Shown: positions 350 through 51,517 of the stretch, in pieces | How the letters are laid out: each line of letters begins with the position of its first letter | Numbering within the stretch: the first letter of the stretch is position 1 | NCBI GenBank assembly: GCA_041650995.1 | Contig: JBAZJZ010000001.1 | Span: forward strand, 299,302 to 363,301 | Reading direction: 5' to 3' | Origin: Patescibacteria group bacterium | Lineage (GTDB): Bacteria; Patescibacteriota; Patescibacteriia; XYB2-FULL-38-15 | Length of the DNA stretch: 64,000 nt | Translations under genes and position numbers: made by a program | The notes under the pieces: model-generated | What the model was told of the DNA's origin: nothing | Seen by the model: the letters and a program-made list of their open reading frames with translations, nothing else | Databases searched by the model: none

Positions 350-425
350 AAATTTAATATTATTCTTTAGTTCTATAATTTTATTATCTCATTATCTTGT
401 CATCTGGTCAAAATAAAGGTTTCTT

Positions 426-456
426 TGGCTTCGGGGGTGGGATTCTTTCCGAACCC
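426..456. repeat. partial copy of tRNA-Asn 3' end (distal att-like repeat); a shorter echo catggctccg at 487-496
   Basis: 19/20 identity to 12485-12504, followed by gaacccc after a 5-nt insertion. Confidence 0.65.
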
Positions 457-549
457 CAACAATGAAAAAACGAGTATCTAGTGACACTCATTTTTTCATG
501 GCTCCGAGCTGTGAGAGAACTTAGAACTATCATTTTAAGCGGTTGGAAG

Positions 550-612
550 TCCTACGAACTGGACGCGGCCGTGGATATGCTGGAAGGAAAGTTCCCACTA
601 AACTACTAATTC
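550..612. repeat. 63-bp direct repeat copy A (pairs with 1053-1115)
   Basis: tcctacgaactggacgcGgccgtGgatatgctggaaggaaagttcccactAaactaCtaattc; 59/63 identical to copy B; flanks the 108-aa membrane protein gene. Confidence 0.8.
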
Positions 613-649
613 GATAAATTCCCTAAAAACTGGCGAGGAAATGAGAAAA

Positions 650-976
650 TTACTTTTTATACCCAACTACTAAATATAAAATTCCCGGAATAAGGGGTGT
701 AAGCAAATTAACGCTGAAGTTTGCGTCCGTTAAAAGTCCGACAACAAAACCGATTATTATAGGAATGATCACAAGAAATCCTCCTGCCTTGGGATATTTC
801 CAACCCAAAACCAAGCCGATAAAGACCAGTGGCATCATGGCCAGCGCGACATTTTCCCATAATGAATAATCCGGCTTGGCAAACGGCAAAGGATTGCCGT
901 AGCCGAAATAAAACGGCAAGGTAAAGATTAAAATACACAATGCAAGTATTCTGGCAACCCATTTTATTGCTTTCAT
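650..976 (-). CDS. small polytopic membrane protein (108 aa), unknown function
   Basis: ORF track; about four hydrophobic segments; bracketed by the 63-bp direct repeats. Confidence 0.5.
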   Translation of the reverse strand: MKAIKWVARILALCILIFTLPFYFGYGNPLPFAKPDYSLWENVALAMMPLVFIGLVLGWKYPKAGGFLVIIPIIIGFVVGLLTDANFSVNLLTPLIPGILYLVVGYKK

Positions 977-1052
977 ATTTTTATTGTTAGTTTAATTATT
1001 TTAAATTCCATCTATATTATAACAGGAATCGTTTTTATATGATATATGGCGC

Positions 1053-1115
1053 TCCTACGAACTGGACGCAGCCGTAGATATGCTGGAAGGAAAGTTCCCA
1101 CTGAACTATTAATTC
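1053..1115. repeat. 63-bp direct repeat copy B
   Basis: See copy A; it overlaps the stop codon of the 198-aa gene. Confidence 0.8.
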
Positions 1116-1705
1116 TTATGACGTTCTATCTCACGCGAAATTTTCTCTACCCCTTTATTGATCCCTTCAATATTTTTTGCCATCTCGTAAATTGGTGGCG
1201 TACCAAGCTGCCGTTCAACTAAACTCTTAAAACCCATAAGGTATTTATCGTTATAAGTATGTTCAAGGGAGTGATCACTATATTCCAACGAGATGGTCAC
1301 ATCTTTTTTCTGCAGGTCGTCTACTCTACCTACCAAAGAGAGTAAGGGAATTTTTATAGTTTGTTGAGGAGCGAGGGTGGGAAGACCGTTTTTTATAATT
1401 TCGATCTCGTTAAGATTTTCCTTCTCATTAAAAAGGGTCAAATTTCCGTCCACAATAAAGGAAATATTTCGAGCGATTCCGTTCCCGTAGTTACCGATCA
1501 CTAACTCTATCAAATTCAGCCAATCTTCCCTTTGAGCAATAAAAACTGCTATCCGAGGACGTCTATTTTCCTCCTCAGTTTTAGACATCAGCTGAACTGT
1601 GCGTTTCGTTTGCCATGCATAATAGGCCGTTATAACCACTAGCAGTAAAGTAGCAACTGCCTGAACAAAACCGCTATTATTATTTAACCAATTGACTATT
1701 TGCAT
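1109..1705 (-). CDS. hypothetical protein with N-terminal transmembrane anchor (198 aa)
   Basis: ORF track; N-terminal hydrophobic helix (AVATLLLVVITAYYAW); starts 5 bp after the 1261-aa ORF, so probably co-transcribed. Confidence 0.55.
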   Translation of the reverse strand: MQIVNWLNNNSGFVQAVATLLLVVITAYYAWQTKRTVQLMSKTEEENRRPRIAVFIAQREDWLNLIELVIGNYGNGIARNISFIVDGNLTLFNEKENLNEIEIIKNGLPTLAPQQTIKIPLLSLVGRVDDLQKKDVTISLEYSDHSLEHTYNDKYLMGFKSLVERQLGTPPIYEMAKNIEGINKGVEKISREIERHKN

Positions 1706-1709
1706 AAAA

Positions 1710-4700
1710 TTAATCCCAACGTAAATCTGTTAAATCTGATTCGATATCATGACCTTTAGCTTCGTTTTCGTATGACTCAGAAATAGACTTAAGCAATGCT
1801 CCAGTTCTTGGCCATCTATTTTTTACAGAATCACTCATAGCCTTATATCTTTGAGATAATTCACGCTCCTGCTTTCCTCCATCCATTAATCCGCGAGAAG
1901 TGACTCCTCGGCTATTATATATTTCAACTTGAACATGTTCGTCAATCGTCTTACTATTGAGCTTCTCTATAAGGTTTCTTACGGCTGTATGAGGCCATAC
2001 TCCATCTGGATCGCTGGGTGCATGGGCTAGTATAAAGCCTATCTGTAAATCGCCACCGATTGTGTGATTTGTTTCGGCACATTTCTCCCTGGCAGATTCG
2101 ACCCACTCAGTCAATTCTTTTTCATCGACACTTCCGTCACTTTTTACGCCCGGCAATAGATACCAAGAGTCTAGTGCTTCGCGGGCAACACGTGCTCGTC
2201 TTTCAAGTAATATATCATCCACTTTTTCTTTTTCCGGATCGGGCGCACGATCATCTCGCCTGTAAATAAATGAAATTAATTGGGCAAAAAAACCTGGGTC
2301 TTTTTGTAATAATCTATGAATCGCAGTAGATGATGAAGTATATCGTTTTAAATCGTCAAAAAGAGCAGCGAAAGGCCATTCTAATTTAACCATTTCTTCC
2401 ATGGAGAGATCATCATTTTTATAGAGCTGATCGAAAACATGACCCAAATGATATTCCTCCATTACACCTGCTTTTAACTTTTTATCCTCAAGCTTTAAAA
2501 TCTCTTCGAGTAATCGTTTAAGTAATATACTTGGAAGTAATAACTTGGGATCGCCCGCAATCCGTAATGCCACCTCTGGCCGTTTTACATCGAGTAGTTT
2601 TTCAATAGCAATAGGTGCTTCCTCGCTTTTGTCAGCCCTAGAATAACCGCTTGCAATTTTCCAATAAGCCTCCTCGGCCTCTTTACCTTGGGAGTTAACG
2701 GCTGACCAGGTTTCCGCGTTTTCTGGTAATCCAAGATACAAAAGCGCACACGCTTCAGATGAATAATTCCCCTTGGTTTTTAAACGTTTGATTTGCTGCT
2801 CAACCCATCCTGGTCCAGCGACCTCAACTCTTCCAAGTGCGTATCCTCGGATAAGAAGCGATGCATCGCCAATTCGGTCGATCATCCCATCTAAATTTTT
2901 TGCATCCTCTTCCTCGTCACAGATTACTTTACCGAGCGCATGACCAAGAACTCCTACGTATTGGATCGTTCCAGCATATTCGATAATTCGCTCTAAGGAT
3001 GCCTTGTCGAGTACCTCACGAGCCACTTTTTCTCGACTCGCATTTATAGTGGTATCCTTTGCGTCATATCCTTTTGGCTCCCCCTCGGGTAATCGTGGCC
3101 ATGGATCACTTAAAAGCCAGCCAACACGGTCCAGTATGTCTTCGGGTTGGAATTTTTCAAGCACTCGATATAGAGCAGGGACTTGTTTTTTTCTTTCATC
3201 ATCTCCATAGCTATTGACCCAATTACACGCCTCTCTAATACATTGGAGCAACCTAATTTTTTCTTCCCTTGAAAATGAATTAATATCGGCTTCTTCGAGT
3301 GTATTTAAAAGTTTTTCCCTGATTTCTAAAGGTAGTCGCGTAAATTCGTCGACGGATGAAATAAGATTCTCTCTTGAACATGCTAAATCGGTAAGTTTCG
3401 GTATTAATCCAGCCACATACTTCTGATGAGTCTCATTGCCTTCTGGCTCAAGTCCACGGCGATTGCCACCCATATCGCGCCAGCGAAACCGGTGTGCTTC
3501 GCTCATAGAACCATCCCCAAAATAATGCTGAGCGAATTTCCAAACAGTCTGCGAATCTTTAACAGTTATTGTGTCCCATGTAGCCAAACGTTCTTCTGGT
3601 GTTGCATACGTTTGTGGAAGCCCAGGAACAAAAATATCTTTCAAACTATTTATGGCTCGATTATTCCAGGTGCCGCCCTTATCAATTCTGGCTAGATCAA
3701 ATAACAAATTCACTGCGCGAAAAAAATATTCTGAGCTCCATGCCATACCCTCTAATGCCCAAAGTAAGCCAGAATGTTTACAGTCACCAAATATACCTCC
3801 CTCGTCAGTCATTAATTCCTGAAAAAGAGCTGGAAATTTTTTTATTTGTTGTTCTGTGGCCTCCATAAAATCATCTGGGGCAGCCTCAGCAAGAAGTGGA
3901 GTGACGTCTTTCAAAGATGCCCAAGTCTCCCATTTATCTGCATTAGCAAAAACTTCTTTGACTACTTGATTAGCAAAGGTTTGTGTAGATGAAATATGCG
4001 AGGAACGATTTCCATATACCGCAATTAGGACTAATGATTCCACTATACCGGTTCTAAGCCATTCTGAGTAAGGGTTTGATTTACCGTAGATTCCCGCTGC
4101 CCATCGTTTATCAGCAGACAATTCATATTTTGGGTCTGTCTTAGTAAGAACTGAAAGGATCGCTCGTTCAAATAGCTTCAAATCAGCTTCAGTCAAATGC
4201 TGTGCGAGCATAAACCATGCATCCAGTGGAGATTTAAGCATCCAAATGCTCCCGACTTTACGTATTGGAGCGTCATCAGTTGAAAGAAATGGTTTTAATT
4301 TTTCAATAAATTTATCGTGCGATTCTCCTGATAAAAGCTCAATAACTTGTCTATCTCCGTCCTTGCGTTCGTCCCAAGAACCAACAAATAAAACAGGCAA
4401 TAAAACCCTGGCTGAGGTTTCTTCCGCCCAGGTTGGGGCCTTTGCACTGGATAAAAATAGATGCCGACGCAGCACCGGAATACTTCTGCCCATATCACGT
4501 GCTATACGTTGAGCCTCTACTTCAGATAGACCATTTTTATTTAAATTCTTCTCAATTATTTCGCGTCTAGGACGGGATAATTCAAAAAGATTGCTTCGAA
4601 AATCGATTGATTTAGAATCAGCGCTAAGAAAAACATAATGACCTTTTTCAACTGCAAAACCTGCTGCTTCCCGGCACTCTGCCGGAGCGGCTATAATAAG

Positions 4701-5495
4701 AGAATTCTGGAAAGTAGTAGCACAAGACCTTAGCTGGTTAATGTTTTCAACTAATACGCAACGAGACAGGGCTCGTATTTTTTCGTTTTCAGGAAGGTTT
4801 GCAATCGCACTATACAAGAATGCAAATGGTTCATCGGGAGAATCTCCGCGGACCTCAAGAATCGAAGGACCTTTGGCTATCCATTGCTGAATCCTTTCCA
4901 TATCTGAAAGGCGGCCGCCAATAACAATCTCCGTTGTCATTTTAGGTTTTGTTGCAGCTGACCATTCTTCCCAAAAACCTTCTATATCACGAATGTTATC
5001 TGATAAATTCTTAATTTGTCTGCCCAACCATAGAGCCACGGCTGGAGCTAAATCAAGCCATTGCTCAATAGCATCGGCAGCAATTACTCTGACATCTTTC
5101 CAAGCGGCAGTGGCTCTTTTTTCGTTTTGCCATTTTACTCTACCAGGCCAAGCTCTGGGAGTAACAAAAACAAAACTGGTATCTTTCTGGGTAAACCCTA
5201 AAGGATCGGCAGTGCGTTTTAAGTAATCCTCTTCTGCTTTTTTACCTGGCGAAGCTTCTGTTCCGATCTCCCAAGCAGAACTTCCTGTCGGGAAAAGAGT
5301 AGAAGCTACGGGTGTTTTTAAACGACCATCCCATCCGGGATTTGCAACGCTGTCACCACTAGGAAACTCAATTTCTTCAATGGTTGGAGCAGTAGCAAAA
5401 ACAAGACGGCGGATAAGTTCCGGCAACGTCTGAGCACAATGTCGTTGATTGCTAGTTATCCAATTTTTAATATCTCCTGCTGTTATCCACTTCAT
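1710..5495 (-). CDS. large uncharacterised protein (1261 aa); island cargo, possible defence/abortive-infection component
   Basis: Single uninterrupted 3.8-kb ORF, Trp-rich, no clear P-loop apart from a weak AAGIYGKS; no family recognised by eye. Confidence 0.7.
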   Translation of the reverse strand: MKWITAGDIKNWITSNQRHCAQTLPELIRRLVFATAPTIEEIEFPSGDSVANPGWDGRLKTPVASTLFPTGSSAWEIGTEASPGKKAEEDYLKRTADPLGFTQKDTSFVFVTPRAWPGRVKWQNEKRATAAWKDVRVIAADAIEQWLDLAPAVALWLGRQIKNLSDNIRDIEGFWEEWSAATKPKMTTEIVIGGRLSDMERIQQWIAKGPSILEVRGDSPDEPFAFLYSAIANLPENEKIRALSRCVLVENINQLRSCATTFQNSLIIAAPAECREAAGFAVEKGHYVFLSADSKSIDFRSNLFELSRPRREIIEKNLNKNGLSEVEAQRIARDMGRSIPVLRRHLFLSSAKAPTWAEETSARVLLPVLFVGSWDERKDGDRQVIELLSGESHDKFIEKLKPFLSTDDAPIRKVGSIWMLKSPLDAWFMLAQHLTEADLKLFERAILSVLTKTDPKYELSADKRWAAGIYGKSNPYSEWLRTGIVESLVLIAVYGNRSSHISSTQTFANQVVKEVFANADKWETWASLKDVTPLLAEAAPDDFMEATEQQIKKFPALFQELMTDEGGIFGDCKHSGLLWALEGMAWSSEYFFRAVNLLFDLARIDKGGTWNNRAINSLKDIFVPGLPQTYATPEERLATWDTITVKDSQTVWKFAQHYFGDGSMSEAHRFRWRDMGGNRRGLEPEGNETHQKYVAGLIPKLTDLACSRENLISSVDEFTRLPLEIREKLLNTLEEADINSFSREEKIRLLQCIREACNWVNSYGDDERKKQVPALYRVLEKFQPEDILDRVGWLLSDPWPRLPEGEPKGYDAKDTTINASREKVAREVLDKASLERIIEYAGTIQYVGVLGHALGKVICDEEEDAKNLDGMIDRIGDASLLIRGYALGRVEVAGPGWVEQQIKRLKTKGNYSSEACALLYLGLPENAETWSAVNSQGKEAEEAYWKIASGYSRADKSEEAPIAIEKLLDVKRPEVALRIAGDPKLLLPSILLKRLLEEILKLEDKKLKAGVMEEYHLGHVFDQLYKNDDLSMEEMVKLEWPFAALFDDLKRYTSSSTAIHRLLQKDPGFFAQLISFIYRRDDRAPDPEKEKVDDILLERRARVAREALDSWYLLPGVKSDGSVDEKELTEWVESAREKCAETNHTIGGDLQIGFILAHAPSDPDGVWPHTAVRNLIEKLNSKTIDEHVQVEIYNSRGVTSRGLMDGGKQERELSQRYKAMSDSVKNRWPRTGALLKSISESYENEAKGHDIESDLTDLRWD

Positions 5496-5496
5496 A

Positions 5497-5512
5497 AATT
5501 ATTTAAATAATT
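5497..5512. promoter_or_regulatory. 16-bp perfect palindrome AATTATTTAAATAATT in the divergent promoter region between the 1261-aa ORF and the LexA-MTase gene; candidate operator
   Basis: Exact dyad symmetry, read directly. Confidence 0.4.
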
Positions 5513-5596
5513 ATTCACAATAGAGGGTATTCCATTTTCGTAAGATTTTCGGTATACTATAAATATATCACTTAGTTTTAAAAACATCAATCCATT

Positions 5597-7195
5597 ATGC
5601 CTATACCAATTACAAAAAGACAAAAAGAAGTTTTAGACTTCATTAAGGGGTTCGTAAAAAAGAAGAAATATCCCCCAACTCTAGAGGAAATATGTAGTGG
5701 GCTTAAGCTTTCCGCTGTATCTACTGTTCATCAACACATTGAAGCTCTTGCCGAAAAAGGATACCTAAAAAAGGCCGGCAATAATGCCCGGTCAATTGAT
5801 GTGAGCGAACCAGAAACAATGATTAAAATTCCTCTACTTGGAACAATTGCGGCCGGAGAACCGATTGAAGCAATTCAGCAAAATGAATTTATTGCTGTAC
5901 CCAAAACAAAATTACCGGCGCATGGTGAAGTTTATGCCCTTCGAGTAATTGGCAACAGTATGATCGACGAGAATATTAACGATGGAGATATTGTCCTGGT
6001 TAAACATCAGAGTACAGCTGAAAACGGCCAAAAAATTGTCGCGCTTATAAACAATCAAGAAACTACCTTAAAAAAATTCTATAAAGAAAAGGGGCACATA
6101 CGTTTACAACCGGCAAATAAAACCATCGAACCTATTATTTTAGACAGAGGAACTCCATTGGCTATCCAGGGAATAGTTTTGGATGTAATAGAAAGTCAAC
6201 CAAGAATAGAGGTCTCAAACAAACAAGAGCCAAAAAAAGAGACTGCGCAGCAACTCCTTTCGCTATCACAAAAGAAAATTAAAATTTCTCATAAACCAGC
6301 CACAGATGCCGACGTGATACTTTTTCATGGTGACCGGCTTGATCTTATGAAAGGATTACCTGATAAATCCGTAAAACTTGTCGTCACTTCACCACCATAC
6401 AACATTGGCAAAGAATACGAAAAAAGAAAAGATTTAGATTTGTATCTGGCCGAACAAGAAGAAACTATAAAAGAAGCGATCCGTATTCTTACTGATGATG
6501 GCAGTATTTGCTGGCAGGTTGGAAATCATATCGGCAAAGACGGTGAGGTCTTTCCGCTCGATGCGCTCATTTATGCTATAGGGAAAAAACTAGGTCTTAA
6601 ATTACGGAATAGAATTATTTGGCGATTTGGGCACGGCCTACATTGTACAAAGAGGTTTTCAGGACGACACGAAACGATTGTTTGGTTTACCAAGGGCGAT
6701 AATTATACTTTCAACCTTGATCCTGTCCGCGTGCCCCAAAAGTATCCAGGCAAAAAGAATTTTAAGAAAAATGAAAAGTATGGAACCTTATCAGGCAATC
6801 CCCTAGGAAAGAACCCTGAAGATGTGTGGGATATACCAAACGTCAAAAATAATCATCCGGAAAAAACAAATCATCCATGCCAGTTTCCAATTGAGCTTAT
6901 AGAGCGTTTGATATTATCCATGACCAACCCGGGAGATGCTGTGCTTGATCCGTATTTGGGCGTAGGGAGCGCAATCTGCGCTGCAGTGATTCATAACCGC
7001 AAAGGATATGGATCGGACATTATGAAGGGGTATTTGGATACTGCTGAAGAAAGAGTCAAGGCAGCTGCAAATGGCACACTAAACCGCCGGATGATGGGAA
7101 CACCGGTTTATCAACCAACCAGCAATGTAAAGCTTGCTGAATTACCAGATGAGTTTAAGAAAGCTCGTGAGAGTCTATTTGGGCCCGGGCTTTGA
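5597..7195 (+). CDS. LexA-like repressor (HTH plus S24 autopeptidase) fused to a beta-class DNA N4-C/N6-A methyltransferase (M.BglII-like)
   Basis: N-terminal half: LexA wHTH (TLEEICSGLKLSAVSTVHQHIEALAEKGYLKK), Ala-Gly cleavage site (IAAGEPIEA), Ser nucleophile (GNSMIDENINDGDIVLV) and Lys (TLKKFY). C-terminal half: VVTSPPYNIGKEY (motif IV DPPY-type) followed by LDPYLGVGSAICAA (motif I FxGxG); this beta-class order is read as N4C/N6A. Confidence 0.8.
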   Translation: MPIPITKRQKEVLDFIKGFVKKKKYPPTLEEICSGLKLSAVSTVHQHIEALAEKGYLKKAGNNARSIDVSEPETMIKIPLLGTIAAGEPIEAIQQNEFIAVPKTKLPAHGEVYALRVIGNSMIDENINDGDIVLVKHQSTAENGQKIVALINNQETTLKKFYKEKGHIRLQPANKTIEPIILDRGTPLAIQGIVLDVIESQPRIEVSNKQEPKKETAQQLLSLSQKKIKISHKPATDADVILFHGDRLDLMKGLPDKSVKLVVTSPPYNIGKEYEKRKDLDLYLAEQEETIKEAIRILTDDGSICWQVGNHIGKDGEVFPLDALIYAIGKKLGLKLRNRIIWRFGHGLHCTKRFSGRHETIVWFTKGDNYTFNLDPVRVPQKYPGKKNFKKNEKYGTLSGNPLGKNPEDVWDIPNVKNNHPEKTNHPCQFPIELIERLILSMTNPGDAVLDPYLGVGSAICAAVIHNRKGYGSDIMKGYLDTAEERVKAAANGTLNRRMMGTPVYQPTSNVKLAELPDEFKKARESLFGPGL

Positions 7196-7849
7196 CCCGT
7201 TGTATTTGCGAAGTTTTATTTTTGCTAGAGCCTCTGTTTTATTTGTTTTGAAAAGCTCTCTAAGAGTTTGGGATTTTGTTTTTTCTTCATCGGTCAAGCC
7301 GATACTTAAAACGAATACCGGAATATCAATATTACTTTCTCCTCGATTCTCAAAATCAACAAGTAGCTGTTCAAATGAGGAAACGCCGGTAGACATCAAT
7401 TTTACTAGCTCACTACTAGGCACGATCTCTATTCCGCATTCGATATATTTGAGATTTTTGAAAATGATCATCTTAGAAAAAATGTCATAACCCATAAAGG
7501 CATATTTTCCAAACTGAATTTCCAACCCAACTTTATTTTTTATTCCATCCATTTCACGAAATCTGCCTTTACCAAAAGCATGACGTGGCTCAACGAAATC
7601 CCGTTTCTTACCGTCTTTTGATTTCTCGGTCCAACCCTTTTTGTGAAGCTCATGTTTTAAATAATCATTCATGTCCACCGGCGAGAAGAGAACTTGTCCT
7701 TTTTTAGTTTTTTCTTTGCTCTCCTTCGTTAAACAAATAGTGCTATCCAAGGATTTTATTGCATTAAAAACTTCCTGAAGTTCTTTCGGGTGTTTTTCTT
7801 TGAGAAATTTCTCTCCGCCCTTAAATGAATAAGTATTGATAACCTTCAT
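7175..7849 (-). CDS. type II restriction endonuclease, BglII/BstYI family
   Basis: 224 aa. By-eye similarity to BglII: FSPVDMNDYLKHELHKKGW versus FDPVGTNQYIKDELVPKHW, and GLEIQFGKYAFMGYDIF versus LVEVQFSNYPFLLNNTV. Tail-to-tail with the MTase, overlapping it by 21 bp. Confidence 0.65.
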   Translation of the reverse strand: MKVINTYSFKGGEKFLKEKHPKELQEVFNAIKSLDSTICLTKESKEKTKKGQVLFSPVDMNDYLKHELHKKGWTEKSKDGKKRDFVEPRHAFGKGRFREMDGIKNKVGLEIQFGKYAFMGYDIFSKMIIFKNLKYIECGIEIVPSSELVKLMSTGVSSFEQLLVDFENRGESNIDIPVFVLSIGLTDEEKTKSQTLRELFKTNKTEALAKIKLRKYNGSKPGPK

Positions 7850-7965
7850 AAACCTATCTAAATTAGAAATCCCTTATAACTACAGGATATCAGAGAAATT
7901 GAAAAAAATCTATAACTAAGTTTTTGTCAGCTTTTGCCAGAATAATTTATCCACAGGGGGCCCTA

Positions 7966-8124
7966 TTGACGGCGGCCTTTATGGTCCGCTATTATGGACC
8001 TGTAAGATAGGAGTTTGCCTGACGGCGTTCCGATTTATCGGAACTAAGTGAGACGAGGCTACGACTTCTGTCATTAAGCACTACGTGTTTTTTGCTTGAT
8101 GATTAGAAGTGGTAGCCTCTTTTT
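7966..8124 (+). ncRNA. candidate small RNA: sigma70-like promoter (TTGACG-18-TATTAT, 7966-7995) to an intrinsic terminator (gaggctacgacttctg...tagaagtggtagcctc plus T5, 8055-8124)
   Basis: Promoter-like hexamers and a long GC-rich hairpin followed by a T-run in an otherwise AT-rich intergenic region; internal hairpin gttccgatttatcggaac. Confidence 0.3.
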
Positions 8125-8230
8125 ATTTATATAAATTAATTTAATACCCTTCTGAGGCAATCGCCTGGATAGGACATACATTTTGATAAGACGAGATTAG
8201 AGGCTAGCTCCCAGTTGGGGCCAGCCTTTT

Positions 8231-8431
8231 ATGTTGCCCCAAGAAGCAGTCCAACAATTCAAAGAATTATACGAAAAACGCTACGGCGTAAATCTCACTG
8301 ACGAGGAGGCTTCTTTGCGCGCTAACAATCTTTTTAATCTTTATAAAATCACCTATATCGGTGAACCTTCAATAAAAGACTTTAATAAAAAAGTAGTGAA
8401 AAGCCATGACCTCAAACCAAACCATAATTAG
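8231..8431 (+). CDS. hypothetical small protein (66 aa)
   Basis: ORF track only. Confidence 0.3.
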   Translation: MLPQEAVQQFKELYEKRYGVNLTDEEASLRANNLFNLYKITYIGEPSIKDFNKKVVKSHDLKPNHN

Positions 8432-8714
8432 CGAAATCCAATTCTACCCCGTTAAGCCCAAGGACGGACTCCTCGGGTTCGTTTCGTTTGTCCTGGACGG
8501 AAAATTCTGGATGGGGTCAGTGGCAGTATTCAGCAGGCCAGATGGCAATTACAGGTTGGTTTATCCGACACGTAAAGTAGCGGGTCAGAATATTAATATT
8601 TTTCATCCGATCACATATGAGGTCGGCCAACAGGTCGAAGTGGCCGTCAGTGAAAAAGTAGCTGAAATATTTAGTGAAAATTATGGACCAGACGAACCAA
8701 CAAGAAGCGAATGA
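8406..8714 (+). CDS. spoVG: SpoVG-family protein
   Basis: GFVSFVLDGKFWMGSVAVFSRPDGNYRLVYPTRKVAGQNINIFHPITYEVGQQVEVAV matches the SpoVG core (ASITIDNEFVVHDLRVIDG...RTPDGEFRDIAHPIN). Confidence 0.6.
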   Translation: MTSNQTIISEIQFYPVKPKDGLLGFVSFVLDGKFWMGSVAVFSRPDGNYRLVYPTRKVAGQNINIFHPITYEVGQQVEVAVSEKVAEIFSENYGPDEPTRSE

Positions 8715-9117
8715 AAAACATTTTAATTGTTTTTTCACTCCGCATAAAATTTTTGATGATGAAAAATTATGCCGGTCATTGACTCACGCCGAACACGGTT
8801 TTTTTACAGCTTTATGCCATTTACATAACCGTTGTGCTAACAAAGATGGATGGTTCTGGCATGTAGATCATTCTTTTACAGATAAAAACGGAAAGAAACT
8901 GGGATTTGCCACCATGGGTTTTGGCAGTTCAACCTGTAAGAGAGCGCGAATTAAATTAGTCAGACTTAAATTGATAGAAATCAAACCGTATATTACCGAT
9001 GAAAGTACTTGGCCGGCTACAATGTATCGCATTAATCCAAAACTCCTCTACGGTACCGGAGACCAAATTGGTCCACGGTCGAAGACCAATTTGAACTCTG
9101 GCCCGGGACCACCATGA
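8674..9117 (+). CDS. hypothetical protein (147 aa), island cargo
   Basis: ORF track; no recognisable motif. Confidence 0.45.
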   Translation: MKIMDQTNQQEANEKHFNCFFTPHKIFDDEKLCRSLTHAEHGFFTALCHLHNRCANKDGWFWHVDHSFTDKNGKKLGFATMGFGSSTCKRARIKLVRLKLIEIKPYITDESTWPATMYRINPKLLYGTGDQIGPRSKTNLNSGPGPP

Positions 9118-9192
9118 GCCCCTAAGTAATAAAGAGTAAATAATAAAAAATAATTAAGATTGCCTAATTAAGGCGAGCAAGCTCGTAAAAAT

Positions 9193-9813
9193 ATGAATCA
9201 ACAACCTACAACTTCAAAGATGCCAAAAGAAACCGAGCAGCAATACACGGCTTGGCTTTTGTATTGCGAATACGGGAGCATCGACAAACTGCTTCAGGCT
9301 TGGCAAGGAATCGAGAGGCGGACAAAGGCGGATGAAAGGCGGACAGAATTTGAAGCTCTAATGGAGAAATTAGGTAATCCTCCGGCGCGAACCACCATAG
9401 GAGAATGGTCAATAAAATATCAATGGATAAAAAGAAAAGAAATGAAGATAGCGGAAGATTTGGAAGCTCTACGAGAAAAGACGAAAAAAATAAAGCGAGA
9501 AAAGCTCCATAGGATCGCTGAAATATTTGACCGAATTACTAACAAAATTCTCAAAGGGCTTCGAGGAAATGAAGAACCAACTATTTCAGAATGGAAAATG
9601 GTCTGGGACATGTTTCAGATCGAGCTTGGCAAACCTACCACCAGAGGCGAATTAAAGACAGAACCAGAACAACGACCACTGACTCCCGAAGAAAAAGAGC
9701 ACGGAAAGAGACTTCATAAAGCTGTGGAATGGTATTTGGAAAACCAGCTGGATGATGAAGACAAATGGCAAGAATTCCAAAAGCTCATTGAGAAAAATAA
9801 GAAAATGAGATAA
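9193..9813 (+). CDS. hypothetical protein (206 aa), charged/coiled-coil
   Basis: ORF track. Confidence 0.5.
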   Translation: MNQQPTTSKMPKETEQQYTAWLLYCEYGSIDKLLQAWQGIERRTKADERRTEFEALMEKLGNPPARTTIGEWSIKYQWIKRKEMKIAEDLEALREKTKKIKREKLHRIAEIFDRITNKILKGLRGNEEPTISEWKMVWDMFQIELGKPTTRGELKTEPEQRPLTPEEKEHGKRLHKAVEWYLENQLDDEDKWQEFQKLIEKNKKMR

Positions 9814-9821
9814 AATAGAAT

Positions 9822-9966
9822 TGCGTCCTACAAGTTTGAATTAAAGCACAGGGTAATTGCTTCTTTTGAAGCCCAATTGCGGGCTGAAAGGGGCGACTAT
9901 CCTCCACAATTGGTTGCCTTGTGCAATTCAATCTTGTGGGACGCAGGCTCTGGTCGTCCCTTTTTG
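9822..9966 (+). promoter_or_regulatory. structured leader with mutually exclusive anti-terminator (9822-9835 pairing 9934-9947) and terminator (gggacgcaggctctggtcgtccc plus T5, 9938-9966); attenuator/riboswitch-like
   Basis: A 12-bp long-range stem gcgtcctacaag/cttgtgggacgc shares gggacgc with the terminator 5' arm; it encloses a ~100-nt GC-richer domain with an internal ccaattg/caattgg stem. Confidence 0.35.
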
Positions 9967-10041
9967 TTTTGTTTGACTTCCTAAAACCTTCGGCCCATGT
10001 TGTGTGTAGAAAGGCCGAAATCAATATTAAGTAAATAATTA

Positions 10042-10914
10042 ATGAACAAACATATGAAAAATAAAGCCATAATTTACGCCGTAATCGCCATTGTAGCGGT
10101 CTTTGGGGCAGGTTACGGAGTTTATCACCTTCTAAGCAACGTACCGCAGAATAAAGGCAACGTTGATGTAGCCTCAATAACGACATTCGAGGCATGCAAC
10201 AAAGCAGGCTTCCCGACCATCAAACATTATCCCGACCAGTGCCAGACTCCTGACGGGAGAATCTTCGTCAATGAAAATCCTCCGAGCGAAGCCGAGCTCG
10301 CCAAAGCAGAATCTGCGATCAAGACATTTATGGGAGAGCCGAATCTGGAGCTTGAATACATAACGCAAAAAAGACATCCCGCAAACTTCTCAGTCTTAAG
10401 CAACGTCAAACAAAATGACGGCGGGTTCACAGCCGACACTCCCGAAGAATGGTATCGCCCAGTCTACATTTTCCAGCAAAAGAATTATATCAATGACCGA
10501 TGTGAAGTCTACCAATACCAAGTGACGATCAAAACAAATCAGGTCGTGGAGATTGGAATTGTCTACCCGATAGAACGCAATGCCACAACGCCAGGCAATT
10601 GCCCTGATAATGGTTCGCTTGAGACTCCGTTAAAGACCAAAGCCGAGATTGAGCAGATTGCATTTGCTTATTTCGGCAGAGACCCGGAACACACAAAATT
10701 CATGCTCCGATCAGACATCCAGCCTCAATATATTCCAAGCAAGGCAGGCGCAGCGAATCCCGCACAAAACGAATGGCGATGGGAAGATAAAAATGTCTCG
10801 CTCCCAGATGGACTAACAGGCGATCCCTGGCAACATCCAATCGCCAGAATAATAATATCGAGTGGCGGTAAGCTGATTTATTACCTGAACACCACCGACT
10901 TATTTAAAAACTAA
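10042..10914 (+). CDS. secreted/membrane-anchored hypothetical protein (290 aa)
   Basis: N-terminal signal anchor (AIIYAVIAIVAVFGAGYGVY). Confidence 0.55.
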   Translation: MNKHMKNKAIIYAVIAIVAVFGAGYGVYHLLSNVPQNKGNVDVASITTFEACNKAGFPTIKHYPDQCQTPDGRIFVNENPPSEAELAKAESAIKTFMGEPNLELEYITQKRHPANFSVLSNVKQNDGGFTADTPEEWYRPVYIFQQKNYINDRCEVYQYQVTIKTNQVVEIGIVYPIERNATTPGNCPDNGSLETPLKTKAEIEQIAFAYFGRDPEHTKFMLRSDIQPQYIPSKAGAANPAQNEWRWEDKNVSLPDGLTGDPWQHPIARIIISSGGKLIYYLNTTDLFKN

Positions 10915-10915
10915 T

Positions 10916-12526
10916 ATGAACTCAGAGGAATTAACAAAAATAACATATTTCCTCTACGCCAGAAAATCATCTGAACAAGAAGACAGACAAGTACTCTCAA
11001 TTGATTCTCAGAAAAGTGAGCTTGAATCATTAGCTAAAAAAGAAAGACTAAATATTGTAAGTCGGTTTGAGGAATCATACTCGGCCAAAGGCCCGGGCAG
11101 AAAAATCTTTAATGAAATAATCGCCCGGATAGAAAAAGGTGAAGCCAATGCTATTCTTGCGTGGCATCCAAACAGGCTCTCAAGAAACTCGGTTGATACC
11201 GGATATTTGATCTATCTCATGGATCAAAACAAATTGCTTGAAATCCGGACTCCGGGCCAGACATTCAAAAATACTCCCAACGATAAATTCCTTCTTAACC
11301 TGCTTTGCAGCCAGGCCAAACTTGAAAACGACAACAAAGGCATAGATGTGAAGCGCGGGTTGAGGCGCAAAGTAGAATTGGGATGGCATCCCGGTCCGGC
11401 TCCGATCGGCTATTTAAACACGCCCGACAAAGAAAAAGGATTTAAGACAATCCGTAAAGATTCAAAAATGTTCCCGATTATCAGGAAAATGTTTGATATG
11501 GTCTTGAGCGGGAGCTATACCGCACCAAGAGTGCATGAGATCGCAGTCAATCAATGGGGTTTAAAGAAATTGGCCCGAAGCGGCTTCTATCGCACGCTTT
11601 ATAATCCCTTCTATTATGGCTGGTTTGAATGGCCAAGAGGTAGTGGTAACTGGCATAAAGGTAAACACGAACCGATGATCACGCGCGAAGAATTCGATCG
11701 CGTCCAACAGCTACTCCATCCTGGTCAAAAACCAAAGCCCGAAAAGCACGTCTTCGCTTATACCGGCATGATCCGCTGTGGCGAGTGTGGCTGTATGGTT
11801 ACGGCCGAAAATAAAGTTAAAAGAAATAAGCAGGGTGGCGAACATTATTATACTTATTACCACTGCACGAAGCGCAAAGGCCCGTGCAGTCAGCAATGCA
11901 TTGAAATAAAGGATTTAGAAAAGCAGATAGCAAAAACTCTGACCGGCATTGAAGTACCGCCAGAATTCCACAGCTGGGCTATGACATGGCTCCGGGCCGA
12001 GAACGGCAGAGAATCAAGCGACAGAAATAACATTCTTAACAATCTACAAAAGAATTACGAGGTGTGTGTCCGTAAGCTGGACACGCTGATTGATATGCGC
12101 GCTGCCGGGGAGATCACTGAAGAAGAATTTAACAAAAAGAAATCGACGGTGACCCAGGAAAAAGCCAGACTCCAGGAACTTTTAAATGACACTGACAACC
12201 GCGTAGACAGCTGGCTCGATGTTGCAAACCGGGTCATTAGATTCTCTGAAGACGCAAAAGAAGCATTCGAAAACAAAGGACTTCAGGCCAAGAAAATCAT
12301 TCTGGCCGGCCTCGGTTCGAACCTCCTCTTAAAAGACAAAATACTCGAGATTGACGTACAAAATGCACTCCTGCCCATGCAACTCGTCTCTTCCGGGGCG
12401 AAAATAAAAACAAACCGGTTAGAACCGGTCAAAGTGAGCCTAAATAAAGAGAAAAGCAGAGCTTTTGGCTCTGCAAATCCCACATGGCTCCGGGGGTGGG
12501 ATTCGAACCCACGACCAATCGGTTAA
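10916..12526 (+). CDS. large serine recombinase (resolvase N-domain, recombinase domain, Zn ribbon); putative island integrase
   Basis: YARKSSEQEDRQ...SIDSQ catalytic Ser region, NRLSRN, CGECGC...YYHCTKRKGPC zinc ribbon. The last ~14 codons are read through the tRNA-Asn 3' end. Confidence 0.85.
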   Translation: MNSEELTKITYFLYARKSSEQEDRQVLSIDSQKSELESLAKKERLNIVSRFEESYSAKGPGRKIFNEIIARIEKGEANAILAWHPNRLSRNSVDTGYLIYLMDQNKLLEIRTPGQTFKNTPNDKFLLNLLCSQAKLENDNKGIDVKRGLRRKVELGWHPGPAPIGYLNTPDKEKGFKTIRKDSKMFPIIRKMFDMVLSGSYTAPRVHEIAVNQWGLKKLARSGFYRTLYNPFYYGWFEWPRGSGNWHKGKHEPMITREEFDRVQQLLHPGQKPKPEKHVFAYTGMIRCGECGCMVTAENKVKRNKQGGEHYYTYYHCTKRKGPCSQQCIEIKDLEKQIAKTLTGIEVPPEFHSWAMTWLRAENGRESSDRNNILNNLQKNYEVCVRKLDTLIDMRAAGEITEEEFNKKKSTVTQEKARLQELLNDTDNRVDSWLDVANRVIRFSEDAKEAFENKGLQAKKIILAGLGSNLLLKDKILEIDVQNALLPMQLVSSGAKIKTNRLEPVKVSLNKEKSRAFGSANPTWLRGWDSNPRPIG

Positions 12527-12559
12527 CAGCCGAACGCTCTGCCACTGAGCTACCCCGGA
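12485..12559 (-). tRNA. tRNA-Asn (anticodon GTT), CCA encoded
   Basis: Reverse complement tccggggtagctcagtggcagagcgttcggctGTTaaccgattggtcgtgggttcgaatcccacccccggagcca gives a cloverleaf with a GTT anticodon loop. Confidence 0.9.
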
Positions 12560-13924: not shown

Positions 13925-15718
13925 TCAAATATTTATTAGCTGATTGAATTCTTCCGCCAATTCTTTTATTCGGCCAAGTTCTTTATTTTCTTCCGCTTTT
14001 TTCATTTCAGCTTGCAGCCGCCGGCGTTCGTTTTTAATATAGTTTTCACGCAATGATTTTGCGTTCTGCAAAATTTCATTACCAATTTCTTCTTCGCTAA
14101 ATTCGGCAAAATCTTTTTCCGCTAAAAGAAATAAGCTCGCAATATATTTTTTTTCATTTGGATCATCCGAAATACTAACCATTACGTTCTCTAAATCTTC
14201 TTTATCCACAGACTTATTATAGTATAAAATTAAGTTTTTGTAAATTTCCCCGAAAGGCTCTTCCGGAAACATAAACGGCTCAAGATAAGGAACAGCCAGG
14301 GATAATTGATTGGGATATTTAAAAACCAAAGCAATAAATCTCTCAGCTAAAAGAGGGCGGCGTTTTTTTGCGGCGGCGGTAATGATTTTTTCTCCGGGCA
14401 ACGACGGACTTGCCGCGATTTTTTCGTGAGGCAGGGATTCACGTAAAATCTGCTCCGGCACCCCTAAAATATTAGCTAATTTTTCCAGATAAAAATTTTG
14501 TTCAACTTTATCAGGAATTTTTATCAATTCCGCAAGTAGTGTTTTTGCCGCCTTCTTTTTGTCTTCCACCTTACGCAAATCAAGTCCGTTCAGAGTTTTT
14601 TTAATATAATAATCCATGAAGGCCATGGAGTTTGTAATCGCCTCGCGCCAAAGATTTGGATCTTTTTTTATATAATCATCGGGATCTTTTCCAATTTCCG
14701 GCGTTAACATTATAACTTTTATATTAATCCCTTCTTTCAGGGCGACGTCAATTCCCCGCATCGCCGCCGTATTACCCGCTAAATCCGCGTCAAAAGAAAT
14801 CGCGAGGTTTGGCGAATATCTTTTCAATAAATTTATTTGTTCTACGGTCATGGCCGTGCCGGAAGACGCTACAACATTTTGCACACCCGCCTGATGCGAA
14901 GCAATTACATCCATATTACCCTCAACCATCACTGCCAAGTTTTCTTTTTTAATTTCCTGTTTGGCAAAATCTAAACCATAAATCACCCGACTTTTATCAT
15001 AAACCAAAGTCTGCGGCGTGTTCACATATTTCCCGCCGGCGTTTTCCTTTTTCTCCGCCTCGGGCATCAAACGCGCCGTAAATCCGACAACGTGGCCGTG
15101 GATGTCGCGGATGGGAAACATTATTCTTCCCCGAAAACGATCGTAATATCCCGCGCCCCGCTCTTTTTTTACGGAAAGCCCGGCCAAAAAAATGTCTTTT
15201 TCAGAAAAACCTTTTCCGCATAAAAATTTTATCGCGCTATCCCAGGAATTCGGCCCGAAACCAAGAAAAAATTTCTCTACTGTTTCTTCAGTCAATCGAC
15301 GTTTTTCAAAAAGATAATTTCTCGCCGCTTCAGCTTCGGGCATTTTTAATAAATTATAATGATAAAATCTCGCTGCCGCTTCCAAAACATCTAACAATTT
15401 TGTTTTTTGGCTTGAAAGACTTTTATCTTCATAGCGAAGCGTTACTCCGGCGCGCTTGGCCAAAATTTTTAAAGCTTCGGGAAATTCAATATTTTCAATC
15501 TTCTGGACAAAACTTATTACGTCGCCGCCCTCACCGCAGCCAAAACAATGCCAGATTTGTTTGTCGCGAGAAACCATAAAAGAAGGTGTCTTCTCGTTAT
15601 GAAACGGGCAAAGACCCTTCCAATTACCACCCGCCTGTTTCATATTGGACACATACTCGCCAATAACTTCCACAATGTCCAGGCGGTTTTTAATTTCCTC
15701 AACTTGCGAATCGGGCAT
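13925..15718 (-). CDS. dnaG: DNA primase DnaG
   Basis: CHC2 zinc finger CPFHNEKTPSF...HCFGCG; TOPRIM region; classic dnaG-rpoD arrangement. Confidence 0.9.
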   Translation of the reverse strand: MPDSQVEEIKNRLDIVEVIGEYVSNMKQAGGNWKGLCPFHNEKTPSFMVSRDKQIWHCFGCGEGGDVISFVQKIENIEFPEALKILAKRAGVTLRYEDKSLSSQKTKLLDVLEAAARFYHYNLLKMPEAEAARNYLFEKRRLTEETVEKFFLGFGPNSWDSAIKFLCGKGFSEKDIFLAGLSVKKERGAGYYDRFRGRIMFPIRDIHGHVVGFTARLMPEAEKKENAGGKYVNTPQTLVYDKSRVIYGLDFAKQEIKKENLAVMVEGNMDVIASHQAGVQNVVASSGTAMTVEQINLLKRYSPNLAISFDADLAGNTAAMRGIDVALKEGINIKVIMLTPEIGKDPDDYIKKDPNLWREAITNSMAFMDYYIKKTLNGLDLRKVEDKKKAAKTLLAELIKIPDKVEQNFYLEKLANILGVPEQILRESLPHEKIAASPSLPGEKIITAAAKKRRPLLAERFIALVFKYPNQLSLAVPYLEPFMFPEEPFGEIYKNLILYYNKSVDKEDLENVMVSISDDPNEKKYIASLFLLAEKDFAEFSEEEIGNEILQNAKSLRENYIKNERRRLQAEMKKAEENKELGRIKELAEEFNQLINI

Positions 15719-25314: not shown

Positions 25315-25420
25315 AAAATTTTATAATTAGATTTGAAAAGTATGATTTATCATATTTTTGATAATATCAAAAGAACCGCATCGTGTCAATACGGTTCTTG
25401 TGGATAAATTTTATAAAAAA

Positions 25421-48329: not shown

Positions 48330-48770
48330 TTAAATTTTGTATAGTAGCCAATTTTTCCCTTCCATTTTTACCAGCGCATAATCGCCTTTCAATTTCTCGC
48401 CATACATTTCAATTTTCATGGCCTTGGTATTTTTCTCTTTCAAAATAAATTTCCCCTTGTCCCAAATCAACACTTTTCCCGCGCCGTATTGGCCCTCGGG
48501 AATTACGCCCTCAAAATCAATATATTCAACCGGATGATCCTCAACTTGCACCGCCAACCGCTTTACTCCCGCGACCTCCGGCGGACCCTTTGGCACAGCC
48601 CAAGATTTTAAAACTCCATCCATTTCCAGACGAAAATCATAATGCAAGTGTCTCGCGTGGTGCTCTTGAACAACAAACCGACTTTGGCCGGTTTTTTTAA
48701 TTTCACCCCTTGGTTCAGAAGTAACGGAAAATTTTCTTTTTACCCGATAATTTTTTAAATCCGAAGCCAC
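48330..48770 (-). CDS. stand-alone DNA ligase D 3'-phosphoesterase (LigD-PE) domain protein
   Basis: [32 protein letters not shown]...[23 protein letters not shown]. Confidence 0.75.
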
Positions 48771-50066: not shown

Positions 50067-51440
50067 TTGCCAACTATGGCTACCGAAAAAATCACTCCGC
50101 AAAATATTGAAGCCGAACAATCTCTTTTGGGAGCGCTTTTAATTGATAAAGATTCTGTCATCCGCGTTGCCGATATTGTCCGGACGGAAGATTTTTATAA
50201 AGAAAGCCACGCCGTGATTTATGAAGCGATCTTGGATCTTTTCGGTCGCCATGAGCCGATTGATATTTTAAGTTTAACTTCAAAACTTGAAGAACGCGAC
50301 AAATTGGAAATGATCGGCGGAAGAAGTTATTTGATGACTCTCGCTAATTCCGTCCCGACCGCCTCGCACGTTGTCCATTACGCCAATATTGTCCAGAAAA
50401 AAGCGACTTTACGACGGCTTCTAACCGCAGCCGGAGAAATCACCTCACTTGGCTACAACGAAGAAGAAGACGTGGAGGTTGTTTTGGATAAAGCTGAACA
50501 AAAACTTTTTTCCGTTTCCCAAAAATATTTAAAACAAATTTTCATCCCGATTAAAAATATTTTAACCGAAGCCTTTGATCGCATTGACGAATTGCATCGG
50601 GAAAAAGGAAAACTCCGAGGCCTCACGACCGGCTACCATGATTTGGATAATCTCTTGGCTGGGCTTCAAAAATCGGATCTTGTGATTTTAGCCGCCCGCC
50701 CTTCCGTCGGTAAAACTTCGCTTGCCTTGGATATCGCGCGAAATGTCGCTACCAAAGCAAAAGTCCCGGTCGGTATTTTTAGCTTGGAAATGTCAAAAGA
50801 ACAACTTGTTGACCGCCTACTCTGTTCCGAAGCCGGGGTGGATCTTTGGAAAATGCGCACGGGCAAACTGTCCGACCGTGATGAAGACGATGATTTTCCG
50901 CGTATCGGCCACGCCATGGGAACTCTTTCCGAAGCCCCGATTTTTATTGACGATTCGGCAACTTCAAATATAATGGAAATCCGGACTAAAGCCCGACGGC
51001 TTCAAATTGAAAACGGTTTGGGTCTTCTGATTATTGACTATTTGCAATTGATGGAATCCCGTTCGCAAAAAGCCGACAACCGCGTCCAAGAAGTCGCGGA
51101 AATCACGCGTTCGCTAAAAGGTATTGCTAGAGAATTAAATATCCCCGTGCTTGCCTTGTCTCAATTATCCCGCGCCGTGGAAGCGCGTTCCCCGGCCATC
51201 CCGAAACTCGCGGATCTCCGCGAATCGGGCTCAATCGAACAGGACGCCGACGTGGTTTTGTTTATTTATCGCAAAGCCATGGACCGCAACTTCCGCGAAA
51301 TAACTCCGGAAGAAAGAAACATCGCCGAAATTCACATTGCCAAACACAGAAACGGCCCGACCGGAATCGTCAATCTCTTCTTTGATGAAAACCGGGTCAG
51401 TTTTAAAAATTTGGAACGGCGCGCGGAAGAACAGCAATAG
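50067..51440 (+). CDS. dnaB: replicative DNA helicase DnaB
   Basis: N-terminal EAEQSLLGALL, Walker A ARPSVGKTS, RecA-like fold. Confidence 0.9.
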   Translation: MPTMATEKITPQNIEAEQSLLGALLIDKDSVIRVADIVRTEDFYKESHAVIYEAILDLFGRHEPIDILSLTSKLEERDKLEMIGGRSYLMTLANSVPTASHVVHYANIVQKKATLRRLLTAAGEITSLGYNEEEDVEVVLDKAEQKLFSVSQKYLKQIFIPIKNILTEAFDRIDELHREKGKLRGLTTGYHDLDNLLAGLQKSDLVILAARPSVGKTSLALDIARNVATKAKVPVGIFSLEMSKEQLVDRLLCSEAGVDLWKMRTGKLSDRDEDDDFPRIGHAMGTLSEAPIFIDDSATSNIMEIRTKARRLQIENGLGLLIIDYLQLMESRSQKADNRVQEVAEITRSLKGIARELNIPVLALSQLSRAVEARSPAIPKLADLRESGSIEQDADVVLFIYRKAMDRNFREITPEERNIAEIHIAKHRNGPTGIVNLFFDENRVSFKNLERRAEEQQ

Positions 51441-51442
51441 TT

Positions 51443-51511: not shown

Positions 51512-51517
51512 TCAACA

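Follow-up and report, generated by a model that had tools for sequence, protein, structure and literature searches.

The 64,000-nucleotide stretch of a Patescibacteria genome analysed here (Patescibacteria group bacterium, GenBank assembly GCA_041650995.1, contig JBAZJZ010000001.1, positions 299,302 to 363,301 of the forward strand; hereafter the window) encodes a 532-residue protein in which a complete LexA repressor continues into a beta-class DNA methyltransferase, next to a convergent gene for a BstYI-like restriction endonuclease. We read the arrangement, with a probability of about 0.5, as a damage-gated, self-repressing methylase gene in a mobile BstYI-like Type II restriction-modification (R-M) module. 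Such LexA-methylase fusions are a widespread and apparently undescribed design, in which self-protection against restriction is probably linked to DNA damage.

A complete LexA joined to a beta-class methyltransferase

The fusion gene is laid out as follows, with coordinates given in the window and residues counted in amino acids (aa):

5597..7195, + strand: LexA-methyltransferase fusion gene, 532 aa, a single uninterrupted open reading frame (ORF)
5606..5791, + strand: LexA winged helix-turn-helix (HTH), aa 4-65 (Pfam LexA_DNA_bind PF01726, E 2.9e-17)
5831..6178, + strand: S24 autopeptidase/dimerisation domain, aa 79-194 (Pfam Peptidase_S24 PF00717, E 1.3e-28)
5852..5857, + strand: predicted autocleavage bond Ala86-Gly87 (AAGEP), from codon translation and conservation
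5957-5959, + strand: Ser121 (GNSM), from codon translation
6071-6073, + strand: Lys159 (TLKK), from codon translation
6197..6271, + strand: linker between LexA and methylase, aa 201-225, disordered (AlphaFold confidence, pLDDT, about 30) and made of variable columns across the class-1 alignment
6371..7051, + strand: beta-class N6/N4 DNA methyltransferase domain, aa 259-485 (Pfam N6_N4_Mtase PF01555, E 6.8e-52)
6389-6400, + strand: methyltransferase motif IV, SPPY, aa 265-268, preceding motif I
6947-6970, + strand: methyltransferase motif I, DPYLGVGS, aa 451-458, C-terminal of motif IV

Judged by its sequence, the N-terminal half is LexA on every criterion, the sole departure being that it is not a stand-alone protein of about 200 aa. 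An earlier note on this DNA, made from the letters alone, had listed a full set of LexA hallmarks at the N-terminus, and this is borne out by the Pfam matches, by the codon-level placement of A86-G87, S121 and K159, and by the NCBIfam equivalog model for lexA (TIGR00498), against which the 532-aa protein scores 183.3 bits where the cut-off is 110.95. The recognition helix reads STVHQH, Q46 being the residue that correlates with operator specificity across the family (see below). The methylase half is of the beta class, as the same note had supposed from the order of its motifs, with SPPY at 265-268 ahead of DPYLGVGS at 451-458. Its nearest solved structures are 8URK and the beta-class enzymes M.RsrI, CcrM and M.MboIIA, and PADLOC assigns it to MTase_II (E 2.4e-80), no PADLOC methylase model reaching into the first 230 residues of the protein. 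An AlphaFold model built with 37 homologues (mean pLDDT 69.5) predicts a winged helix with HTH helices at 7-23, 29-35 and 41-53, an S24 domain rich in beta structure, disorder at 201-225 and a Rossmann-type methylase. One further proposal of the earlier note, that cleavage would release the methylase, is misleading: a cut at A86-G87 would free no more than the DNA-binding domain of 86 aa, and the methylase would stay on the S24 dimerisation domain.

A search of 5.8 billion proteins returned about 88 clusters of full-length fusions, 523-559 aa in length and 69-97% identical, which stem from independent JGI, ENA, NCBI and Logan assemblies and whose named hosts are Parcubacteria or Uhrbacteria. 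The fusion sequences are already public, under generic labels such as 'BstYI methyltransferase', 'LexA repressor' or 'adenine-specific DNA-methyltransferase'. In an alignment of 37 class-1 fusions, A85, A86, G87, S121 and K159 are invariant, and the methylase half is far better conserved than the LexA half.

A putative direct-repeat operator at the promoter of the fusion gene

The putative binding site of the LexA part lies just ahead of the gene:

5534..5553, + strand: putative LexA operator, direct repeat ATTTTCG-TAAG-ATTTTCGGT with an 11-bp period, abutting the -10-like TATACT/TATAAAT (5553-5564)

A direct repeat with the consensus ACTTTCTATTTATTTTCTAT, in either orientation, is present in 75 of 77 distinct regions upstream of related lexA(-methylase) genes, placed over the spacer between -35 and -10 or just downstream of -10. 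When we scanned the 1.38 Mb of locus DNA that we had fetched with a position weight matrix (PWM) of this repeat, 82 of the 92 hits fell at lexA(-methylase) promoters; in the window and in the 1.38 Mb alike, the scan found no operator before endonuclease genes or before genes of controller (C) proteins. Within the window, 5534-5553 is the only close match, and this copy reads ATTTTCGTAAGATTTTCGGT, with the half-site TTTCGG accompanying Q46. Across the family, the recognition-helix residue flanked by the two histidines goes with the dinucleotide that follows TTTC: F, Y or H with TA or GA, Q or E with GG, and K with GC. The partition has no exception, although shared ancestry inflates it, and it is what direct readout of the operator by the helix would produce. 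The standalone LexA genes of the clade (L088, L125 and L165; L numbers denote related loci) carry the same motif at their own promoters. At L165 a second strong copy (7461-7480 of that locus) stands before an operon of a 63-aa and a 156-aa gene next to the standalone lexA, and these two genes are candidate members of a Patescibacteria LexA regulon.

The earlier note had favoured another operator, the 16-bp palindrome at 5497-5512 (AATTATTTAAATAATT). It is perfect, consists of A and T only and overlaps the start codon of a divergent 1261-aa gene, but it is conserved in none of about 80 related upstream regions, and we reject it in favour of the conserved direct repeat.

Two other features of these promoters deserve mention. 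A DnaA-box-like 9-mer, TGTGGATAA (or TGGGGATAA), lies directly upstream of the -35/operator region in about 50 of 70 lexA-methylase genes (L081-L160). The window's own methylase promoter is without it, and a copy is present upstream of the endonuclease gene; exact copies number three in the window (7947-7955, 14202-14210 and 25399-25407) against 0.32 expected. DnaA or another factor could co-regulate the lexA-methylase genes. We also considered TGTGGATAA as a repeat marking the cassette boundary and rejected it, the 9-mer being consistent only upstream of the operator and missing from the right end. In many relatives (for example L105, L112 and L124), the -10 box TATAAT is part of the second operator repeat and stands about 6-10 nt before the ATG, a spacing short enough to suggest leaderless mRNAs for the fusion genes.

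The convergent endonuclease and the place of C proteins

The fusion gene faces, and overlaps with, the gene of its presumptive partner:

7175..7849, - strand: BstYI-like (BglII-family) Type II restriction endonuclease, 224 aa (Pfam Endonuc-BglII PF09195, E 1.5e-18)
7547-7549, - strand: endonuclease catalytic D101, aligning with BstYI D119
7520-7522, - strand: endonuclease catalytic E110, aligning with BstYI E128
7514-7516, - strand: endonuclease catalytic Q112, aligning with BstYI Q130
7175..7195, both strands: convergent gene overlap of 21 bp, the same in relatives

The earlier note had taken this gene for a relative of BglII. Its convergent, overlapping position and its membership of the Endonuc-BglII family stand, but in a comparison with the PDB the protein is BstYI-like (E 1.2e-31) rather than BglII-like (E 4.6e-5); PADLOC calls it REase_II (E 9.7e-34). 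All three parts that had been foreseen, the S24 domain, the methyltransferase domain and the BglII endonuclease family, are matched in Pfam. The endonuclease gene adjoins the fusion convergently in all class-1 loci, and the methyltransferase/endonuclease pair co-occurs in more than 60 loci. A terminator scan found no terminator-like site at or near the overlap at 7175-7195; the only such sites on the + strand within the endonuclease gene, at 7680-7698 and 7774-7790, are far downstream of it, and the number of terminator-like sites does not exceed that in shuffled sequence. RGATCY as the recognition sequence is only a guess: the window holds 21 such sites where about 29 are expected, and the GATC hexamers show a weak avoidance (AGATCT 2 against 5.0 expected, GGATCC 5 against 10.2). 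We tried target-site avoidance as a means of inferring specificity and abandoned it, the signal being too weak.

In the earlier note, LexA had apparently replaced the C protein as controller of the system. The window does lack a C homologue or any small ORF upstream of the endonuclease (7850-8300), but three sister loci with the same fusion (L002, L006 and L086) still have a C gene ahead of the endonuclease gene, and so do many fusions from other classes. Because C co-occurs with the fusion in these loci, LexA is not a general replacement for it; LexA is an add-on to the methylase side. Within the Candidate Phyla Radiation (CPR), L007 and L171 hold unfused convergent versions of the methylase and endonuclease genes, with a classical C protein of 70 aa encoded ahead of the endonuclease, and in ordinary bacteria the same methylase and endonuclease (55-66% identity) are widespread as a tandem pair without LexA. 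At L005 and L008, a different LexA-like gene (209 aa, 28% identical) lies unfused and directly upstream of the same methylase class, with an upstream repeat of its own, TAGAACA-N4-TAGAACA.

A modular family of fusions

Using the LexA part alone as query, we went through metagenome contigs and retained 80 loci. Among the 66 complete ORFs in them, 64 are LexA fusions of 428-613 aa and two are standalone LexA proteins, a large family that makes the architecture anything but a one-off. By their C-terminal parts, these fusions sort into at least 13 beta-class clusters whose mutual identity is mostly 22-30%, and LexA_DNA_bind, Peptidase_S24 and N6_N4_Mtase are found together in every cluster representative. 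When 1.84 billion representatives were searched exhaustively for the LexA part, 30 of the top 40 matches were at least 430 aa long with LexA at residues of about 2-197, and the longer proteins among them carry gamma-class methylases (N6_Mtase/Eco57I/TaqI_C) or a C5 cytosine methylase. Most fusion classes have a convergent partner gene of their own, the partner endonuclease being, according to class, TaqI-like, His-Me/endonuclease VII (HNH), MutH-like, BsaWI-like or BstYI-like; several partner genes have no Pfam match, and a small, C-like HTH_3 gene often follows the partner gene. That the design recurs across beta-class, gamma-class and C5 enzymes, and across at least five endonuclease folds, indicates that LexA is coupled to DNA methylation as such, and that the coupling is not an accident of one gene pair.

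The Ala-Gly bond, the GxSM serine and the TLK lysine are kept in all 68 of 68 distinct fusions, across all classes and over a range of LexA identity from 53 to 100%, which argues that cleavage is under selection. LexA identity is nearly uncoupled from methylase class (mean 71.9% within classes, 67.8% between them), and at L124 and L126 the LexA parts are 96% identical and the methylases 25%. At the DNA level, the block common to different classes begins about 50-95 bp ahead of the ATG and extends about 590-770 bp into the gene, so that homology between classes ends at or shortly after the end of LexA, in the linker; in some cases the C-gene block is also common to different classes. It appears that many unrelated Patescibacteria R-M systems took up the same logic by recombination at the lexA/methylase linker.

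We considered a phage origin. Among the 2.9 million viral contigs of IMG/VR we found only one convincing fusion (L161), so the gene does not belong primarily to phages.

A related arrangement is seen at L167/L168 (6001-7412), where the gene of a standalone LexA from the same clade, which has an operator of the same type, is followed 6 bp on by that of a DpnI-family methyl-directed endonuclease. This suggests a LexA-controlled restriction enzyme that requires no methylase, and the lexA-dpnI operon indicates that LexA proteins of this clade can also drive an endonuclease directly.

A mobile module in a putative integrative island

The fusion and endonuclease genes belong to a larger unit, which lies in turn between putative island ends:

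5530..8243, no strand assigned: mobile R-M module (operator/promoter, lexA-methylase gene, endonuclease gene, structured non-coding tail), delimited by homology to L169
7990..8135, + strand: very stable RNA-like structure, a long hairpin and U run in the module's non-coding tail (minimum free energy -60.4 kcal/mol, z -8.5)
423..445, + strand: att-like copy of the tRNA-Asn 3' end, putative left island end (20-nt blast match, 1 mismatch, E 0.004)
10916..12526, + strand: large serine recombinase, 536 aa, putative island integrase (Pfam Resolvase, Recombinase and Zn_ribbon_recom)
12485..12559, - strand: tRNA-Asn, putative integration site and right island end, abutted by the serine recombinase and followed by rpoD and dnaG
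1710-5495, - strand: 1261-aa ORF, divergent from the lexA-methylase gene (no hit in Pfam, NCBIfam or PADLOC)

The module recurs on a 957-kb contig from another host, L169, where 2715 bp match at 95.4% nucleotide identity. The homology sets in 4 bp ahead of the operator and ends at 8243, and beyond these limits the flanks are different: L169 lacks window positions 8244-12147, homology with it ends at 12490, and Type I R-M genes are found near its copy of the module. The window's SecA, at 93% identity to a protein of 'Candidatus Falkowbacteria', marks the host as a Patescibacterium; the L169 contig carries none of the 120 best relatives of this SecA. A module so nearly identical, between different flanks and on a contig without a close SecA, indicates that it moved recently between CPR hosts. 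The structured element in the tail (7990-8135) matches no Rfam family; it is 95% conserved in L169 and has a promoter-like site ahead of it at 7966-7995.

In the window, the module sits in a putative integrative island of about 12 kb (423-12559) at tRNA-Asn. By eye, the match of the att-like copy reaches about 21 nt, and GAACCC then comes again after a 5-nt insertion. Recombinases of the same family as the putative integrase lie beside LexA-methylase modules at L006, L129, L130, L138 and L143. Besides the R-M module, the cargo comprises the 1261-aa ORF, a SpoVG-like ORF (8406-8714) and several ORFs without matches. The slot of the 1261-aa ORF is occupied in L169 and L170 by a 1975-aa defence-type protein of the Cap4-nuclease/NACHT (STAND) kind, and by analogy of position the 1261-aa ORF may be an uncharacterised defence gene.

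Some dozen loci have inverted repeats of 50-300 nt, 83-100% identical, on both sides of the whole lexA-methylase/endonuclease/C module (L006, L086, L104, L122, L124, L126, L132, L138, L143 and L149 among them), some of them beside large serine recombinases. Such repeats may mark invertible or transposable cassettes. No long inverted repeats flank the module in the window.

A proposed damage-driven feedback and its alternatives

How might a LexA domain serve an R-M module? We propose that a dimer of the LexA-methylase would bind the repeat at 5534-5553 and shut down its own gene. Self-repression at its own promoter would therefore give a burst of methylase upon entry into a naive cell, and a set level later on. 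As the genes overlap without a terminator-like site, strong methylase transcription would run into the convergent endonuclease gene and probably dampen its expression. RecA*, formed upon DNA damage or on single-stranded DNA (one source being breaks that the module's own endonuclease cuts where sites are under-methylated), would trigger self-cleavage at Ala86-Gly87, stripping off the DNA-binding domain and thereby derepressing the promoter. The extra methylase would then protect the chromosome, a damage-driven feedback that would correspond, in a Type II system, to restriction alleviation. The SOS response is known to be induced when Type II methylation is lost or insufficient (PMC2685091), which makes a feedback of this kind plausible.

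Several points count against this account. We infer its central steps, self-cleavage, RecA dependence and operator binding, from the sequence. The window's operator is divergent, scoring 9.1 bits on the family PWM where most loci score 24-29; its first half-site reads TTTCGTA, and the loose operator pattern alone occurs in the window at chance frequency. A consensus promoter scan misses the methylase promoter, and the 64-kb window contains neither recA nor a second operator. Transcriptional control alone needs no fusion, as the operon versions at L005, L008 and L167 demonstrate, and the repeated selection of a physical fusion hints at a post-translational step that the feedback does not explain. 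Moreover, both cleavage fragments of LexA are degraded in E. coli, and so damage could, by analogy, remove the methylase instead of boosting it.

This last possibility, a damage-triggered loss of protection, is the strongest of the alternatives, though we consider it unlikely. Cleavage would expose degradation signals, the S24-methylase fragment would be destroyed and the methylase-to-endonuclease ratio would fall, leading either to stricter restriction of incoming phage DNA or to the delayed suicide of a damaged or infected cell. Post-translational coupling would need a physical fusion, and loss of protection better explains why fusions and not operons have been selected repeatedly, with every methylase class. 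The conserved catalytic residues are in keeping with it, as is the degradation of LexA fragments by ClpXP and Lon in E. coli. So too are the surroundings, for the window module and its near-identical copy lie among defence genes (in L169, these are NACHT/Cap4 and Type I R-M), and the standalone LexA directly before a DpnI-type endonuclease at L167 suggests damage-induced restriction. If protection were lost in this way, however, the same cleavage would derepress the gene, so that synthesis would rise just as the protein was being destroyed; existing methylation lasts for generations, so killing would be slow; with the convergent layout, firing of the methylase promoter should lower the amount of endonuclease instead of raising it; and no degradation tags can be identified from the sequence.

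Somewhat less probable again is that the LexA part acts only as an autoregulatory and dimerisation module, like the N-terminal HTH of M.SsoII, which times methylase expression during establishment and whose self-cleavage has no physiological role. The operator at the gene's own promoter would suit such a role, autoregulating methylases are already a known solution, a mobile module must establish itself in new hosts, and the co-occurring C proteins would handle the endonuclease side. A mere HTH-dimer module would, however, be free to lose its cleavage residues, and the Ala-Gly bond, serine and lysine persist in 68 of 68 fusions.

It is also conceivable, though improbable, that the fusion is the cell's master SOS repressor, with the methylase a passenger attached to the chromosomal lexA. 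In favour of this, the protein scores above the LexA equivalog cut-off, is 60-72% identical to standalone Patescibacteria LexA proteins of about 210 aa, and has an operator of the type that it has in common with standalone LexA genes (L088, L125, L165), and the 64-kb window contains no second lexA. But the gene sits, with a serine recombinase, in the tRNA-Asn island of about 12 kb; the 2.7-kb module recurs at 95% identity on the L169 contig, between other flanks and apart from any of the 120 best SecA relatives; across about 70 loci, the upstream neighbourhood shows no conservation; and the window has no other operator. A gene in a horizontally transferred module within an integrative island is unlikely to be simply the host's vertical lexA.

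Finally, odd fusions are often artefacts, and unfused versions exist (L005, L171), but beyond that prior expectation nothing speaks for adjacent lexA and methylase genes having been joined by a sequencing or assembly frameshift, a possibility that the earlier note had raised and that we exclude: the methylase part has no Met at its start, the linker has no stop, and the same continuous frame recurs across independent assemblies in about 88 protein clusters, 13 class-1 loci and about 55 loci of other classes.

Relation to known systems

Set beside LexA proteins (TIGR00498, S24 family), the fusion is alike in its winged HTH, its Ala-Gly site, its Ser/Lys dyad and the predicted operator at its own promoter, and it differs in having about 330 extra C-terminal residues, the DNA methyltransferase, and in its location in an R-M module; no LexA-type regulon beyond its own gene is detectable in the 64-kb window. 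Its 11-bp-period direct repeat has a parallel in Alphaproteobacteria, whose LexA boxes are GTTC-N7-GTTC direct repeats as quoted in PMC8565304. BstYI and BglII systems have in common with the module the endonuclease fold family, the D...E-x-Q motif and a beta-class amino-methyltransferase with SPPY, whereas their methylase is unfused. BglII carries a C protein, as relatives of the window module do, whereas the window copy is without a C gene.

By analogy of function, the nearest precedent is the group of autoregulating methylases with an N-terminal HTH. M.SsoII, M.Ecl18kI, M.EcoRII and M.ScrFIA likewise have a DNA-binding N-terminus on a methylase and a site in their own promoter through which they autoregulate. 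Theirs is a short HTH of about 70 aa on C5 enzymes, with no protease and no sequence relationship to the fusion, whereas the fusions carry a complete 200-aa LexA with autocleavage machinery, on beta-class, gamma-class and C5 enzymes. Work on the SsoII, EcoRII and ScrFI methylases is listed among the references of a 2013 review of R-M regulation (PMC3874152), in which LexA figures only in connection with toxin-antitoxin systems.

DNA-damage-responsive regulators of defence exist as separate proteins (PMC12392091). CI/SetR-type S24 repressors, CapH/CapP and WYL regulators resemble the fusion in sensing damage, in being borne on mobile elements and in controlling element or defence genes, but they are separate proteins that act on transcription only, without being joined to the enzyme under their control. 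Restriction alleviation in response to damage belongs to Type I systems and works differently, through ClpXP proteolysis of HsdR, and DpnA of Streptococcus pneumoniae is induced during competence from a ComX-dependent promoter. Both represent a similar programmed shift to protection when, following damage or uptake of ssDNA, unmethylated self or recombinant DNA is to be expected, but by entirely different mechanisms and with no LexA fusion. We know of no built-in link to the SOS response in Type II R-M systems.

The earlier note knew of no description of the architecture, and a full-text search of the literature turned up no account of a LexA-methylase fusion; the 2017 Patescibacteria SOS network paper (cited in PMC8565304), which might report the operator or fusions, lay outside the coverage of that search. 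A methylase bearing a canonical damage sensor would let an R-M system sense self-inflicted or external damage and adjust its protection. We are tempted to generalise, with somewhat less confidence than we attach to the damage-driven feedback in the window: in Patescibacteria, the fusions may make up a large, so far undescribed class of Type II R-M modules gated by DNA damage, in which RecA*-triggered self-cleavage would reset the balance of methylase and endonuclease, whether as a restriction-alleviation or self-damage feedback or, in reverse, as a kill switch. On the same tentative footing, the lexA and C-gene end modules could be recombination handles for swapping specificity cassettes of any enzyme family, and the variants of operator and helix (F/TA, Q-E/GG and K/GC) could be regulatory incompatibility groups. 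The family provides a compact, naturally occurring set of orthogonal repressor/operator pairs, whose specificity code can be read in a single residue, and a view onto the shuffling of R-M specificity cassettes in gene-poor, uncultured Patescibacteria. The fusion proteins can be tested directly in E. coli.

Other features of the window

The window also encodes a stand-alone protein with a LigD 3'-phosphoesterase domain (48330-48770, - strand), as well as DnaB and RecR (50067-52129), and there is no LexA operator upstream of any of these genes. Further on, at 54700-56900, the GC content rises to 0.56-0.58 from about 0.41 elsewhere. We found no rRNA in this GC-rich stretch, which holds three tandem repeat units of about 680-760 bp with small ORFs and ends near a tmRNA-like match to the tRNA domain (56783-56867, - strand) that scores under the Rfam gathering score.

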